DNA of 64,000 bases from an uncultured Ruminococcus sp. Its GTDB lineage: Bacteria; Bacillota; Clostridia; Oscillospirales; CAG-272. Numbering within the stretch: the stretch's first letter is position 1; the number at the start of each line of letters is the position of its first letter. Below are positions 1,407 through 26,684 of the stretch, piece after piece. Location: contig CAZVYZ010000005.1 in the NCBI GenBank assembly GCA_964630695.1, forward strand, positions 2,487-66,486. The letters run 5' to 3'. The notes under the pieces are model-generated. The model was not told where the DNA came from, did no database searches, and saw only the letters and a program-made list of their open reading frames with translations. A program made the position numbers and the translations under genes.

Positions 1407-1583
1407 TTTTGACACCTCCTACATTTAACGCTTCACCGTAGCAATACGGGGCAGAACCACTGTACAACAGCAACCATTATACCATATCTTTTCCCGAATT
1501 GCAAGTGTTTTTTGAAATTTTTTCTGTTTTTCTCAAGTTTTTTTGGCGGAACCCCCGAAAATCGGGGAAAAAGCGACTCGGAT

Positions 1584-3536
1584 TTACCGCGCGAGCGTTT
1601 CTGTATCGTGGAGGAACGATTCTCCAAGTCCGCCCGAAAGTGTGCGGGACGGGAAGTCCGTCACTGCCGGTGCGTTCTCTCCGAGTCGCAGGATAAGACC
1701 ACCGTTACCGGTCAGCATCCGCAGGGCAAACACGGTCTGCGGGTCCTGCGGGAGCGTGGCTTCGGGGCAGAGAATGAGGATGCGCGAAGTCAGAATCCTG
1801 CGCGAAATCGAACCGTTTCCGTCCCGCTCTGTCAGGACCTTGCAGTCTGCGCCAACCGCACACAGCGCCGCCGCGAGCGATACCGCCGCCGCGTCGTTGG
1901 GACGGGACAGCACGGTCATTTCATAGCGGTCGCTCCAGATATATTTTCCGACCCGTCCGGGGAGCGGAATCCGTTCTTCTTTGTTCCCTGCGTTCGGGAG
2001 CATGGTTTCCACGGTTCCCACGCGGGCATAGGGCAGAGCGGCGCCCTCCAGAAGCAATCCGACCGACAGCCGGTGTTCCGCCGCTTCCGTGTCCGCAAGA
2101 CGGCAGGTCAACCCGTTTCCCGCAGTCCGTGCAATGCAGTCCCCCAAGGTTTCGGCGACCGCAACCCGTGCGCTGAACAACTTCCCAATCTGCGCGTGCG
2201 TGCGGACCTCGGTCAGAAGTCTGCGCAGGAGCACAAAATCGGGAATGCCCGCTTCAGTCATCACGGGCGTCACGCACCAGATGCCGTTGCCCGCCGCACG
2301 ATAGGCGGGCGGGAGAACGCCTGCGCTTCCGGCAACTGCCCAGACCGTCAGTTCGGGAGCGGTCAGACTGTCGTCTGTCTCGGCAAACAGTGCCGCGGGA
2401 GCGGCAAACTCCATCTGTGCGCGATAAATTCCGAGCAGGATGGCGGCGAGTCCGTTCTCGGCTTCTTCGTCTTTCGAAGTCGGGAGCCGCAGACCGATTC
2501 CCAAACGGATGTCGGGATAGTCCGCACCTGCCGCCGCAAGCGAGAGCAGGGGCGCGAGGACCGTTGCCATTGCCGCGCGGAAGCCGTTTTTGCCAAGGGG
2601 GCGGACGGCGGAAGATACCGTTAAGCCGCATTGTGTCACGCGCTCGGACCGCGCAACGGGCGCATCCAGATAGGGGGAGGAATTCCCCGCAACGGGAACC
2701 CGCGTCATCGGGCAAGCGGCGGACGTCGCGACGGGAATCGAAATTGCCGCTTCCTTTTTCGCCCGATAGGCACGAAGTTCTGACGTCGGAACGCGCAGAA
2801 CGTCAGTAGCGGAATAGGCGAACGCAATCTCTTCCCGTTCGGTCAGGACCGCCGCGGAGGTCGCCGTAATTCCCGCCTCCTCGGAGAGCATCTTTCCGAT
2901 GCGCTCCGCGTCTTTTCCATCAACCAGAAGCAGACGCGCGTGTGTCAGCGGGACAAACAGCCGCCCGAGCGGTGTGGGCGCTTCGATGCCGTCCAAGCGT
3001 TCGAGCGCAAAGAGAATCCCGCCGAAACGCGGGAGCAGAGTCGGCAGAATGCCGTGTTCTCCGATTGTAACGGTCTGTTTGACTGCTGCACGGACCGCGC
3101 TCCGCCCGAATGCCGCCGAAAGAATCTCCGCATCTTCGGCGCGGACCAAAAGCAGAATATCTCCTGCGGCGGGCTGTTCGTTCTCCCGTTTTGCAACCGC
3201 GTTCAGAAACAGTGGAGAGCCGACCGCGCCGAAGTGCGTTCCCACTGCATCGGTTCCGACCGACAGGCGGGTCTGTCCGAGGGTCGGCTGTCTGCCGCTG
3301 CGTGCAAGGTATGCCGAGGCAAGCCCGAACAGTTCTCCGAGCGTCGGCGGCGTGAGTGCCTGCGGATGCAGTTCCCGCCGTTTTTCCAGCATATCGGCAT
3401 AGGTCTGCGCCACCTCTTTGTCATCGGTGGAAAGCCGGATCACCCGCGTGGCGGTCCATTCCGCCGAAAGATTCCGCAGGCTCCCGAGGAGTTCCCGTTC
3501 GGCGTCGGTCATGACCCGTTCCCGTTTTCTACCCAT
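1584..3536 (-). CDS. Degenerate PurL (FGAM synthase)-like protein, catalytic motifs lost
   Basis: Segments are colinear with clostridial large PurL as recalled (EQPAAGDILLL; LLLVDGKDAE...TATSAAVLTE; LAAAGADYPDIRL; LLGIYRAQMEF; start of a glutaminase-like domain). No HCRH, HNHP, DFGAGG, ESQERM or GICNG motifs. Confidence 0.6.
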   Translation of the reverse strand: MGRKRERVMTDAERELLGSLRNLSAEWTATRVIRLSTDDKEVAQTYADMLEKRRELHPQALTPPTLGELFGLASAYLARSGRQPTLGQTRLSVGTDAVGTHFGAVGSPLFLNAVAKRENEQPAAGDILLLVRAEDAEILSAAFGRSAVRAAVKQTVTIGEHGILPTLLPRFGGILFALERLDGIEAPTPLGRLFVPLTHARLLLVDGKDAERIGKMLSEEAGITATSAAVLTEREEIAFAYSATDVLRVPTSELRAYRAKKEAAISIPVATSAACPMTRVPVAGNSSPYLDAPVARSERVTQCGLTVSSAVRPLGKNGFRAAMATVLAPLLSLAAAGADYPDIRLGIGLRLPTSKDEEAENGLAAILLGIYRAQMEFAAPAALFAETDDSLTAPELTVWAVAGSAGVLPPAYRAAGNGIWCVTPVMTEAGIPDFVLLRRLLTEVRTHAQIGKLFSARVAVAETLGDCIARTAGNGLTCRLADTEAAEHRLSVGLLLEGAALPYARVGTVETMLPNAGNKEERIPLPGRVGKYIWSDRYEMTVLSRPNDAAAVSLAAALCAVGADCKVLTERDGNGSISRRILTSRILILCPEATLPQDPQTVFALRMLTGNGGLILRLGENAPAVTDFPSRTLSGGLGESFLHDTETLAR

Positions 3537-3539
3537 CGT

Positions 3540-5667
<2,128 letters not shown>

Positions 5668-8341: not shown

Positions 8342-8872
8342 TTACCGTGTTGTGATAAACAGGATATTATACTGGTGTGCCATCGAATCCCAGACGGCAT
8401 CGGTGACAACACCTGTCGGAGAGAACGCGTTGCAACGCTGAAATGCCTTGACCGCATCGGCGGTGGCAGGGGAGAATTCACCCGTTACCTCCACGGTCCC
8501 GATGGAGCCGTATTTCTCCTCCAAGCGGCTCAGCATGTGTTGGAGCGCCGCGACGGCAAAGCCGCGACTGCCGGTTTCCAGGATTCCTCCCGACGGTGCG
8601 CGCGGAAAAATGTCCATCCGCTCGCGCGGACCGTTTGCCGTGAGAGACGCGCGATAGGCATCGTAGAGCGCCTCCCATGTGGCTTGATCCGCCATGCCGG
8701 TTACAGGCAGATTGTGCGCCGCCTGAAATTCTTCAAGGGACCGTTGGGTTGCATAGCCGAAACTGCCGTTGACGGGCGGTTGCGTCATCCCGGGGGTATC
8801 GTAGGAAATCTGCCGCAGATAGGTTTGCAGGTTCAGGACTGCCGCAATCGGGGTGTTTTCGGTTGGTTCCAT
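8342..8872 (-). CDS. Peptidoglycan-binding protein (2 x PG_binding_1 repeats)
   Basis: LQTYL...NGSFGYAT..SLEEFQ..HNLPVTGMADQATW and LQHML...TGEFSPATADAVKAFQ...TGVV...W. Confidence 0.85.
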   Translation of the reverse strand: MEPTENTPIAAVLNLQTYLRQISYDTPGMTQPPVNGSFGYATQRSLEEFQAAHNLPVTGMADQATWEALYDAYRASLTANGPRERMDIFPRAPSGGILETGSRGFAVAALQHMLSRLEEKYGSIGTVEVTGEFSPATADAVKAFQRCNAFSPTGVVTDAVWDSMAHQYNILFITTR

Positions 8873-8884
8873 ACTCTGACCTCC

Positions 8885-10288
8885 TTATTGCCCGAGCGTG
8901 TAGCCCGGGTACTGTCCGTCATTCAGCCGCGCGCCGATATAGAGCGTGTTGTAAATGTCGGTCACGGCGTTCCAGACCGTTGCGTCCACCACGCCGCCGT
9001 TTGCATCGGGCAGACCGAATTCCCGCTTGAAAGCAATGACCGCTTCCTCGGTGCGCGGACCGAAATAACCCGTCGGATTGACGGTTGGGATGGATGGATA
9101 GGACTGCGCAATGTAGTTCAGGTATTCCTGCAACAGGCGCACGTAGTCCGAATCCGACCCCACGCGGAGCGGCGCGCCCGGATAGGGGACGGTCACGCCC
9201 TCGGTATACTGCGTCGGAATGGTGCGGATGATGCCGAGATAGGCGTCGTAAAGCGCGTTCCATGTCCGGACCCCGACAATGCCGTCTTCGGTAAGCCCAA
9301 ACGTCCGCTGAAGTGCCTTGACCGCCGCGAGCGTTTCGGGACCGAACACGCCGTCTATCGCAATCACGGGGATGGTGTCATAGTATTGCCCGACGTAATT
9401 GAGCAGGTATTGCAGATTGTAAACGTAGTTCCCGCTGTCGCCCTCTTTCAGTACTTCGGGGAAAATCGGCGTGACTTCTCCCTCCGGAATGCCCTCTGCG
9501 CTCAGGTCGGTCAACTTCTTGACCCCGATATAGACGTTCTGAATGGTGTACCACGTCGATTTGCCGACGATTCCGTCGGGGTCCAGGTTGAAGATTTCCT
9601 GAAAGCGGCGGACCGCCGCCTCGGTGTCCTCGCCGAACCTGCCGTCGGTGGCAAGAATTTTCGGAATGGAGGGGTAGTTGTTGGAGATGCGGTTCAGCCG
9701 GATTTGCACGGTCCGCACGTCGTCGTTGATCGCGCCGAGACGGAGCGGAACGGGCGGAACGCTCGGTCCGATACCTTCAACCGGCGCATCGCGCACCAAT
9801 TCGATGTCGTTGCCGTAGTAGTACTGCAGAATCTCGAACGGCGTCAGCCCGCGGTTTGCAAGCGTGACCGTACCCCACTGGGAAAGCCCGTTGCAGGTCA
9901 CGGTGGTCCCGTTGCAGTATTGCGCGAACAGCGGTGCCACACTGCCCTCGCGGCGGATATAGTCGTCGAACAACTCAGAGGCAATCCGACGGACATTTTC
10001 AAAGGTTTCCCGCCCGTTTACGAATGCTTGGTCGTAGGCGGTGTTGTTGGTAATGTCGAAATCGTAGCCGCGCGTGCGGTAGTATTCGGTCCAGATGCGG
10101 TTCAGCGCAAACGAGACCTGCGCGTAGATGTTGGCGCGGATGGCATTTTCGGGCCATGTGGGATAGATTTCACTGGAGGCGACGTTCGCGATGTAGTCAA
10201 GAAACGGGACCGTCACGTTTGCGGCGTCCGATTGCGGCGCGCCGAGGTGAACAGTGATGGTTTCGGGGATGGTTGGAACGGTCGGCAT
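8885..10288 (-). CDS. sleC: SleC-like spore cortex-lytic enzyme: SpoIID/LytB catalytic domain plus PG-binding repeats, lacking the N-terminal pre-pro region
   Basis: PETITVHLG.P, DYIANVASSEIYPTWP, FALNRIWTEYY, YDFDIT...AYDQAF, LSQWGT; repeated DGxFGxxTxxAVxxFQ motifs. Confidence 0.85.
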   Translation of the reverse strand: MPTVPTIPETITVHLGAPQSDAANVTVPFLDYIANVASSEIYPTWPENAIRANIYAQVSFALNRIWTEYYRTRGYDFDITNNTAYDQAFVNGRETFENVRRIASELFDDYIRREGSVAPLFAQYCNGTTVTCNGLSQWGTVTLANRGLTPFEILQYYYGNDIELVRDAPVEGIGPSVPPVPLRLGAINDDVRTVQIRLNRISNNYPSIPKILATDGRFGEDTEAAVRRFQEIFNLDPDGIVGKSTWYTIQNVYIGVKKLTDLSAEGIPEGEVTPIFPEVLKEGDSGNYVYNLQYLLNYVGQYYDTIPVIAIDGVFGPETLAAVKALQRTFGLTEDGIVGVRTWNALYDAYLGIIRTIPTQYTEGVTVPYPGAPLRVGSDSDYVRLLQEYLNYIAQSYPSIPTVNPTGYFGPRTEEAVIAFKREFGLPDANGGVVDATVWNAVTDIYNTLYIGARLNDGQYPGYTLGQ

Positions 10289-24319: not shown

Positions 24320-24457
24320 AAAAGTGAATATTTGGCAAAACCGTCGTGAGGCGGCGACGCAAAGCCTTGGGTCTTTTCTGATGGGAAAGTCAGCCCGGTT
24401 GCAATTTCTGAGGGATGGTATACGGATACCATCCTGCGGTTGCAATCGGTTTTTTTT
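24320..24457 (+). ncRNA. c-di-GMP-I (GEMM) riboswitch aptamer plus expression platform
   Basis: GGCAAAACCGUC-GUGA-GGCGGCGACGCAAAGC (P2 with GNRA loop) and GGGUCU...CAGCCCGGUUGC (P3) match the GEMM consensus; downstream hairpin and U8 tract. Confidence 0.9.
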
Positions 24458-24494: not shown

Positions 24495-24692
24495 ATGGCA
24501 AGCAACAACCAAAACAATAGGGTCGGCTCTTTTGCCGCTGTCAACGGAGGGGTCATCGTGGGGTATTCTGCAAACGTAAAGTTGAGCGGATGCCCGAACG
24601 GCGCAGGCTTCGTGTTCGGAAACAGCGGCGTGGTGAAAAACTCCGTTTCTATGCGCGTAGGGCGCGGAAAGGGCGTCACGGGATTTCGATGA
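24495..24692 (+). pseudogene. 65-aa ORF, probable truncated N-terminus of a GLUG-like beta-repeat protein
   Basis: GGAGG RBS. GSFAAVNGGVI and AGFVFGNSGVVKNS resemble GLUG-type repeats; the ORF stops abruptly just before the next RBS. Confidence 0.45.
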
Positions 24693-24706
24693 AAGGAGGT
24701 GGGAAA

Positions 24707-26684
24707 ATGAAAACGAAATTCGGAAGACGGATTGCGGGCGCGATGGCGTTCTGCTTGGTATTGGCAACGGTGCTGACGGTTCCGTTCGGCTTTCTTCTTC
24801 CCGCCTCCGCCGCGGAAGCGGACTATACGTTTGATTCGGGTGCCGTGCTGATTACTTCCGAGCATAACGGCAAAAACATTCTGATTCAGAACGGTGTTTT
24901 CTCGGTCACGGTCAGCGGCGCAACAGGTGTCACGCTTCTGTTTGACAGTGTGAAGATGGACCGCAGATATTCGCAGGACAAGGACACGAAAAGCGGGAGT
25001 ACCGTTCGGGATTTGTATCGTGTTTCGACCACTCTCGGTTGGGGAACGAAAGCGCAGGTCTGTCCGCTTCTGATTACCGACAATTCGGAAGTCGAAGTGG
25101 CATTCCGCGGGACCAATACTTTTTACGCGGGTGTCAACAGCTGTACCGTCACTTCAGGCAACGTCTATGCAAGTTCGCAAAGCGGCGGCGGATTCGCGGG
25201 CATTCAGGTTGACCGCGGCTCAACCCTGACGATTCAGCAGAGCAACGGGTCTGTATTCGCCTATGGCGGTCATTACGTGGCGGCAGAGAATTCATCCAAC
25301 AATCCGAGCGACACTACCAATTTTCCGAAAGGCGGTGAAGACAAAGGTTATGGTTCGCCTGTCGGAACCACAACCAATCAACTTGCAGGTGGCGCGGGTA
25401 TTGGCGGCGGTGTAACCTACAATACCACGTCCTCTTACGGGCGGAGTTATACAACGGGACCCCCCGGGACCATTATCATCAACGGCGGTGAGATTCATGC
25501 CTTTGGCGGACATCAGGCGGCAGGCATCGGCGGCGGTCTGAACAGCGCCGCAACTGCAACCTCCATTACCATCAACGGCGGGAAAGTCAATGCCGAGGGC
25601 GGTCGTTGGGCGGCAGGCATCGGCGACGGGGACTCTTTGCAGGACCAATATACGGGGCAGTACAGCAACAGTTACTCCATCCATATCAACGGCGGAACCG
25701 TCACAGCGGTCGGAGGGGTTGCAAAATCGGGCATTGGCTGTGCGGACGGTTTATCCTCCGGTGTGAATACGACAACAACTTCGGGAATGAAAATCAACAT
25801 TACGGGCGGAATGGTTGATGCTCGGTCAGGTTACCCCGACCACTTCAATCCCTCTTCAACCACCGCTTACGAGGGGGCGGACGCTGCTGCGGCAATCGGT
25901 GCGGGAAACAAAACCCAAATGGTGGCACAGTCCATCTACATTTCGTCCGGTGTTACGATAATCGCCTCGGCGTTCGGACATTACGCCATTACCGAAAACG
26001 GTGTGGACCATGAGAGCGTTCCGCAGGTTTCCATTGAACAATGCAGAATGTACAACGGGCGGTTTCCGAACTTGGCATCAGCCCGGTTTATCCGTTGCCG
26101 GATGATATTACCGAGTGGCGGGCGAAGTTGTTGGAACTGTTTCAGGATAACAACATGACGCTCTACGCGGACAGCAGTTCGATTGAAATTTCCACTGTGA
26201 TTGCGCGGAAGCATTTCAAATCCATTGCGCTCACGTTACCGGACCCGACCGAACACGGCGGTCTTTACGCGTTGGAGATTCTGACCTCCCGGATTCTCAA
26301 TCCGCCGACGGGTATTGAACTTCCGGAGAATATCTATACAATGACAAGGATGATAACGGGAGCAATCCCTCGCACAATTATTTGCAGGTCACGCTGTCTT
26401 ACCGCGCGTTGCAGGAGAAAGATGGCGTTACCACCGACTCGATTGGCGTTACGGGGATTACCCCCGAATTGTATGGGAATGAATCTCTGAAAAATCTGAT
26501 TGAGACTATCGGCGAGAACGGCTCCGTGCTGTCGGTAGCGAAAGGCGAGCAGATTTCGGTCTGGCTGTCGCTGAAAGGGGAGCCGACTGCCAAGAATGGC
26601 GGCGCATTTACTTCCGTAAATCTCGTTCCCGTCGGAATGCTGACCATTGCGCTCGGTGGCTTCAGCCAAACAGGAGGAAACTGA
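24707..26684 (+). pseudogene. Secreted Gly/Ser/Thr-rich beta-helical surface protein, broken into three reading frames
   Basis: Signal peptide (MKTKFGRR...PASA/AE) and GGAGIGGG / AAGIGGG / AAGIGDG / AAAIGAG repeats. Frame changes near 26040 and 26320-26340 (ORFs 24707-26158, 26041-26490, ~26319-26684). Confidence 0.65.

Follow-up and report, generated by a model that had tools for sequence, protein, structure and literature searches.

What does the 650-codon open reading frame (ORF) directly behind mtaB encode, and is it tied to its neighbour? We addressed this question for a gene, here called X, in a 64,000-nt stretch (the window) of contig CAZVYZ010000005.1 from an uncultured Ruminococcus sp. 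(GenBank assembly GCA_964630695.1, positions 2,487 to 66,486). The upstream gene encodes the tRNA methylthiotransferase that converts N6-threonylcarbamoyladenosine (t6A) to its 2-methylthio derivative (ms2t6A). An initial annotation, made from the letters alone, had read X as an open but catalytically dead derivative of PurL, the large formylglycinamidine ribonucleotide (FGAM) synthase. We conclude, with a probability of roughly 0.6, that X is a PurL-derived pseudoenzyme co-translated with MtaB and would act as its non-catalytic accessory partner, the partnership being suggested by gene linkage. X protein matches no Pfam family, even at E<=1.

The length and openness of the X frame prove nothing by themselves, since long antisense ORFs are found in this GC-rich region: plus-strand frames at 1512-2624 (370 aa) and 2940-4607 (555 aa) overlap X and mtaB and are of the spurious kind usual in GC-rich coding sequence. 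That such frames are common in the window, and that X evolves faster than the neighbouring MtaB, would fit a decaying pseudogene or a chance frame. The selection data refute this reading, which we regard as highly improbable. Pairwise Nei-Gojobori estimates over unsaturated pairs (dS 0.03-0.75) give a ratio of nonsynonymous to synonymous substitution rates (dN/dS) of 0.17-0.27 for X, a range that includes the 98-99% identical copies in loci L019 and L020. No frameshift was found in the X orthologues examined, and the frame is open over its full length in all of them. The 22 close protein clusters that match X (46-99% identical, nearly all full length), together with the dN/dS of about 0.2, establish the minus-strand frame as a real gene. 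An exhaustive profile search (E<=1e-3) extends the family to 438 representatives when sequences are clustered at 50% identity, and the AlphaFold2 (AF2) model of X is a confident one (see below). X is thus under purifying selection and not decaying, in agreement with the earlier proposal of a frame kept open by selection. The frame also has its own ribosome-binding site, as first noted: AAGGAG is followed by the mtaB stop TGA (3542-3540), three nucleotides (ACG) and the X ATG (3536-3534).

The ancestry of X emerges from profiles of increasing depth. Single-sequence phmmer of X against the PDB found nothing relevant, a 20-sequence X profile drew chance antibody matches only, and hhalign against one PurL sequence, that of E. 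coli, gave too faint a signal (probability 7%). Neither AIRS (PF00586) nor AIRS_C (PF02769) has a Pfam match in X or 19 close homologues; one distant member of the X family matches AIRS_C below the cutoff (E 0.037). Among NCBIfam models, the sole meaningful match of X is TIGR01857, the model for the clostridial-type large FGAM synthase; X scores 22.2 bits (E 2e-5), and its residues 316-487 fall on positions 708-887 of the 1239-position profile. The same model is matched by half of the close homologues (10/20, at E<=1) and by all ten distant family members scanned, nearly always alone and with E values down to 1.5e-18. In the distant members two colinear stretches align, with query residues ~6-130 on profile positions 165-291 and ~370-565 on 708-911. 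The curated TIGR01857 cutoff of 1057 bits is reached neither by X nor by the best family member (65.8 bits). A 113-sequence family profile searched against the PDB returned PurL as its top 18 matches; these were the only significant PDB profile matches of the family (best E 6e-4), and those to Thermus and Thermotoga PurL fall on the B1 segment of X.

We then compared the family with an alignment of clostridial-type PurL built from 131 real database sequences, the N- and C-halves coming from separate match sets. A bait sequence served only to fetch these database proteins (80% identical to the bait), and all conclusions rest on the retrieved PurLs. The hhalign comparison gave a probability of 99.9% and an E value of 2e-35 over 681 columns, placing family positions 24-704 colinearly on PurL columns 167-1100. 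In members of 700 aa the alignment begins at column 167; in X it begins near column 211. The colinearity with large PurL that had been noted by eye was accordingly recovered by profile-profile alignment, as were nearly all of the individual correspondences on which it rested. The segment TDAERELL..YADMLEKRREL..PPTLGELFGLASAYLARSG aligns to PurL 211-293, around HCRH; AAGDILLL aligns to pGDiiILL and QTVTIGEHGI to rCNDFGAGGV; LLLVDGKD..AAVLTE falls on the PurL segment past ESQERM; and LAAAGADY..IRL, LLGIYRAQMEF and IPDF fall in the second PurM-like half. X almost certainly descends from PurL. Its probable source is a duplicated large PurL of the clostridial type (TIGR01857).

A tblastn search with X also recovered a true purL, in locus L017 (E 2e-4). 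In L017 (5001-8745) and L018 (5001-8694) the clostridial-type purL is broken into two ORFs by apparent frameshifts; both loci are long-read metagenome contigs, and in L018 the genes beside purL are fragmented as well. These splits look like assembly indel errors and not biology, and many "partial" PurL database entries may share this cause.

Which parts of PurL are retained? The TIGR01857 PurL (~1250 aa), the direct source of X, has the same order of linker, A1, B1, A2, B2 and start of the glutaminase (Table 1), and the two share the blocks RDP..E, TY..Y...R.EL, pGD..LL, G.Y.AQ and P.LT/V.FA. X is half as long, and it lacks the PurS-like N-domain (PurL columns 1-166), equivalents of His216 and His296, the Mg/ATP ligands, the Cys-His-Glu triad of the glutaminase and the auxiliary ADP-site motif. 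Residues 1-125 hold the most conserved block of the family, TDD..VAQTYADMLEKRREL..PPTLGELFGLASAYLARSG; the HCRH, ETHNHP, GGAIRD and GNQIGLATG segments are deleted from this part of the protein. Behind this block, PurL columns 299-436 (~140) have shrunk to ~30 unconserved residues in X, the lost stretch reading SeEINAC..FKNETHNHPTEIEPFGGAATClGGAIRD..GNQIGLATG..RMEIGAV in PurL. The DX4GAXP signature of the PurM superfamily, known from work on Thermotoga PurL, lies in this deleted segment. In B1, NDFGAGG has become VTIGEHG and ESQERM has become PLTHARL, and GGrTGRDG..CGAEVQKGNaP is deleted. The A2 subdomain holds LAAAGADYPDIRL and LLGIYRAQMEF, with the invariant R372, and the auxiliary-site GGKDSMSG of PurL reads ALFAETDD. 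The PurL sequence DTYWSDHCRHTTF is likewise replaced in X.

The C-terminal domain is positioned where the PurL glutaminase, a class I glutamine amidotransferase domain (GATase_5, PF13507), has its first half. The initial assignment of TVLSRPN..GADC..GGLILRLGEN to this half stands in the full alignment and is weak when the domain is taken alone (hhalign to PurL 986-1099, E 0.02). The LGICNGFQ of PurL has been replaced by LRLGENAP, leaving no nucleophile cysteine aligned with GICNG, and X ends at PurL column 1100, before H1260 and E1262, so that the His/Glu half of the glutaminase is absent. Derivation of the domain from the glutaminase is the parsimonious reading, suggested by its position in the alignment and by pattern matches (V.L.RP.D with VFIPV.PGTN, GAD with AGA, ILILC with IIMFPGG, and GGLIL with DGLALG).

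The losses extend across the family. The motifs HCRH, H[NS]HP, GGx[IV]RD, G[IV]CNG and GGKDS occur in 0/168 family representatives and in 120/120 true PurLs covering each region. By checked E. coli PurL numbering, these motifs hold H216 (HCRH), H296 (ETHNHP) and C1135 (GICNG), to which H1260 and E1262 are added; publications on Salmonella PurL number these residues in the same way. No histidine is conserved across the X family. Given the motif counts and the missing histidine, both ancestral catalytic centres are long lost, and lost throughout the family. The initial annotation had listed the PurS-like N-terminal part, the HNHP block and the distal glutaminase region as missing, and the residue map and motif counts agree. 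As every defining catalytic feature tested is absent, X is not a PurL in the functional sense, and on this residue-level evidence it very likely lacks both PurL and glutaminase chemistry. With both ancestral active sites gone, X would neither make FGAM nor hydrolyse glutamine.

Structure prediction is consistent with this ancestry. The AF2 model of X (predicted local distance difference test score, pLDDT, 78; predicted TM-score, pTM, 0.64) contains the two-domain A/B fold of the PurM superfamily. Foldseek places PurL entries at ranks 1-26 in the PDB (E 3e-16 to 2e-12), followed by ThiL, PurM, SelD and HypE (E 3e-8 to 3e-6). The best matches are the small PurLs of Thermotoga maritima and Thermus thermophilus (2hs0, 1vk3, 3viu), with the Salmonella large PurL (1t3t, 4lgy) also among them (E 3e-16 to 1e-14 for small and large PurL); the H296A mutant entry 6lyo is matched too. 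The best PurL superpositions reach TM-scores of 0.35-0.41 at 11-14% sequence identity. Compared with these enzymes, X has a greatly diminished A1 and none of the active-site residues. PurM, ThiL, SelD and HypE share the A/B two-domain fold with X, but each of them is a homodimer of single repeats whose ATP sites are intact, whereas X is a fused double repeat without ATP-site motifs. A separate AF2 model of the C-terminal domain (pLDDT 83) shows a five-stranded alpha/beta flavodoxin-like fold; its Foldseek matches are generic (the SARM1 TIR domain, the FleQ and CheY receivers, SIS; best E 4.5e-4) and include no glutamine amidotransferase fold. X keeps a double PurM-like core (a reduced A1, B1, A2 and B2) and a flavodoxin-like C-terminal domain, and has shed the PurS-like N-domain and both catalytic centres.

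We then asked whether the position of X behind mtaB is conserved in relatives, a question raised by the initial annotation. The loci with upstream sequence (L001-L004, L006-L016, L019, L021-L023, L025 and L027) all have mtaB immediately upstream of X on the same strand, and the linkage is therefore kept in every informative locus. In most of them the two genes are -4 to +17 nt apart (those of L014 overlap by 4 nt); in L015 the gap is 160 nt. They remain adjacent where identity has fallen to 24% for X and to 50-55% for MtaB, and also where rpmB is not the downstream gene (htpG in L015, tyrS in L016). From its spacing and conservation, the pair looks like an operon. The usual gene order has lnt, a rluD-like gene and upp on the divergent side, followed by mtaB, X, rpmB, (DUF6873), DUF896, tsaE, tsaB, rpiB, ispD, ispF and rpe. 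In L001, L003, L012 and L014, tsaE and tsaB stand on the same strand behind mtaB-X-rpmB, about 1-3 kb downstream of X; the corresponding place in this genome would be just past the left end of the window. Read as gene order, the t6A synthesis genes tsaE and tsaB and mtaB, whose product acts on t6A, form what is suggestive of one themed string.

The same synteny admits another explanation, in which X has nothing to do with MtaB and is instead a purine-pathway partner of an intact PurL or a sensor of formylglycinamide ribonucleotide (FGAR), of glutamine or of a nucleotide; its place beside mtaB would then be inherited gene order. The divergent upp-rluD-lnt block is kept in nearly all loci, about as well as the pairing of mtaB with X, and inherited synteny within one clade therefore contributes to the pattern. 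The only PurL-derived pseudoenzymes known so far, the gammaherpesvirus vGATs, recruit active PFAS (PMC7605207), and a PurL partner would be available to X. The X-bearing clade is apparently one of Oscillospirales-like gut Clostridia, and the named genomes with X matches (UBA6330, UMGS1014 and Eubacterium sp. CAG:180) belong to uncultured Clostridiales of the gut. True TIGR01857-type PurLs are recorded in metagenome-assembled genomes of Oscillospiraceae, Acutalibacteraceae and Ruminococcaceae, and the X-bearing lineage therefore probably keeps a working PurL. Against this explanation, the 3-nt spacing, the ribosome-binding site inside mtaB and the overlap in L014 point to co-translation, and the adjacency has survived the downstream rearrangements in L015 and L016. 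No pur gene was found in any locus with annotated neighbours, and no intact purL in the 64-kb window or in any fetched locus. We judge this explanation unlikely.

The accessory role with MtaB is the most likely of the readings because co-translation is indicated in every X-bearing lineage and because, in the usual gene order, the tsaE/tsaB gene string accompanies the pair. X would act through binding and not through catalysis, assisting MtaB in forming ms2t6A at position 37 of the tRNA, whether by stabilising MtaB, by presenting the tRNA or by linking the activity of MtaB to the binding of a small molecule. That the function of X is tied to MtaB has, in our estimate, slightly less than an even chance of being correct.

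Several observations besides the shared synteny weigh against the accessory role. Compared with MtaB, X diverges two to three times as fast, a pattern uncommon among obligate subunits: the dN/dS of the adjacent mtaB is 0.02-0.15, and between relatives the identities of X and MtaB are 76 vs 91%, 50 vs 74%, 34 vs 70% and 24 vs 55%. The family is acidic (median isoelectric point 5.9), which argues against direct tRNA binding. Moreover, the family-specific invariant residues D48, K52, R372, E376 and R438 may form a new active site.

This last point leads to the possibility that X is a neofunctionalised enzyme acting on t6A- or ms2t6A-tRNA or a related substrate, which could carry out a dehydration, a cyclisation, or a sulfur relay through Cys590. 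PurM-superfamily enzymes all activate a carbonyl oxygen using ATP. The conserved polar residues of the X family are in part common to PurL and in part its own; D48 and R372 are invariant (100%; 113 sequences for R372), K52, E376 and R438 are kept at 98-99%, and Y371, T45 and Y46 are also near-invariant (>=95%). Such conservation, the purifying selection along the whole length of X, and the retention of Cys590 at the end of a beta-strand of the C-terminal domain in 84% of members are what a new enzyme would be expected to show. Conversely, every known nucleotide- or Mg-binding element of the fold has been deleted or replaced, namely the Glu and His of ETHNHP, the Asp of GGAIRD (DX4GAXP), the Asp of NDFGAGG and the auxiliary-site GGKDS; the family has no conserved histidine, and C590 falls short of invariance. 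Some lineages (L011, L016) also dispense with the C-terminal domain: among the matches listed, full-length members are mostly 640-720 aa, and forms of ~510-570 aa lack this domain (P0022 in L011, 8001-9500; P0163 in L016, 6001-7707), while insertion-bearing forms reach 812-818 aa (for example L015, 6001-8457). The variants in L011, L015 and L016 all still lie directly behind mtaB. Taken together, we regard a new enzymatic activity as quite improbable.

Returning to the accessory role, its strongest version would make X an obligate new subunit of MtaB, a recycled PurL shell that alters ms2t6A formation. We find this version doubtful; it might take the form, for instance, of sulfur delivery via Cys590, of a former FGAR pocket that now recognises the threonylcarbamoyl group, or of synthesis of a further, undescribed t6A derivative. 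A role as a cyclase of the type that makes cyclic t6A (ct6A) was ranked low, every element of the ATP site being gone. We also dropped an analogy with a RimO-YcaO-style accessory pair, because E. coli YcaO has recently been assigned to uL16 thioamidation (PMC13063428).

The closest precedents for X are viral. The gammaherpesvirus proteins vGAT/vFGARAT (ORF75, BNRF1) derive from PurL/PFAS, are without the catalytic triad and do not sustain the synthesis of purines (PMC7605207). Like X, they are PurL/PFAS-derived pseudoenzymes in a new role (PMC7605207); unlike X, they are viral, of eukaryotic-type PFAS origin and roughly full length, and they serve immune evasion through recruitment of host PFAS. 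X also differs from PurL itself in its genomic context, lying beside mtaB and not beside pur genes. Full-text literature searches returned no account of any PurL-derived pseudoenzyme from bacteria, nor of a PurL-like gene linked to mtaB. Neither Pfam nor NCBIfam has a model for the family, and in the source databases it is unnamed, one member being called "hypothetical protein".

Table 1. Gene X, the segments of its product and neighbouring features in the window.
Feature	Coordinates	Strand	Basis or remark
X, PurL-derived 650-aa protein	1584..3536	minus	ORF list; ATG start; stop codon 1584-1586 included
Residues 1-125, PurL linker and A1 remnant	3162..3536	minus	hhalign to PurL 167-298: probability 99.1%, E 1e-18
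Residues 126-262, B1 subdomain (AIRS_C-like)	2751..3161	minus	hhalign to PurL 442-613: probability 97.3%, E 3e-11
Residues 263-300, poorly conserved linker between halves	2637..2750	minus	pLDDT <50 at 282-295; no PurL signal
Residues 301-425, A2 subdomain	2262..2636	minus	hhalign to PurL 713-833: probability 97.2%; TIGR01857 match
Residues 426-525, B2 subdomain (GIPDFVLLRRLL.., GKLFSARVAV)	1962..2261	minus	hhalign to PurL 828-935: probability 83.7%, E 8e-6
Residues 526-650, C-terminal flavodoxin-like alpha/beta domain	1587..1961	minus	Full alignment: PurL 986-1100
Ribosome-binding site of X (AAGGAG)	3546..3551	minus	Read from sequence; within mtaB 3' end, 9 nt before ATG
Weak terminator-like hairpin and T-run	1573..1590	minus	Consensus scan only; overlaps X stop codon
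mtaB, tRNA ms2t6A methylthiotransferase	3540..4919	minus	TIGR01579; Pfam UPF0004 and Radical_SAM
rpmB, ribosomal protein L28	1236..1415	minus	ORF translation; usual gene downstream of X
DUF6873 protein	400-1137	minus	PF21778, E 3e-38; downstream of rpmB

The gene upstream of X scores 436 bits against TIGR01579 (cutoff 357). Its longest ORF is 459 aa with a GTG start, the gene calls in relatives give 438-455 aa, and a promoter scan places a promoter-like site (4938-4910) inside the 5' end of this ORF; the true mtaB start is probably the ATG at 4874 (MSQPDF...), giving 444 aa. The hairpin over the X stop codon may be the end of the mtaB-X transcript. By the same promoter scan, rpmB has a promoter-like site of its own (1504-1476), and in relatives a 56-aa gene at the rpmB position matches PF00830. 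The DUF6873 gene has the same position in L001 and L003 and is absent in L012 and L014, and is therefore outside the conserved mtaB-X unit.

Further away, two adjacent minus-strand ORFs (8342-10288) resemble peptidoglycan-binding-repeat proteins. Such genes stand beside lnt in close relatives too, and the syntenic genes of L001, of equal lengths (467 and 176 aa), match PG_binding_1. The sole Rfam match in the whole window is a c-di-GMP-I riboswitch aptamer (RF01051) on the plus strand at 24324-24406 (51.4 bits, gathering score 35), which lies ~180 nt upstream of a 522-aa ORF (24590-26158) and far from X. ARAGORN found no tRNA genes in the window.

X would be, to judge from the searched literature, where the herpesvirus vGATs are the only ones, the first PurL-derived pseudoenzyme to be found in a bacterium. 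It defines a new and sizeable family in human and animal gut Clostridia, in which a large enzyme has been eroded domain by domain under selection: the N-domain has been lost, A1 gutted, the glutaminase halved and, in some members, the C-terminal domain removed altogether. The coupling of X to mtaB offers a concrete lead to a possible accessory factor of a radical-SAM methylthiotransferase.

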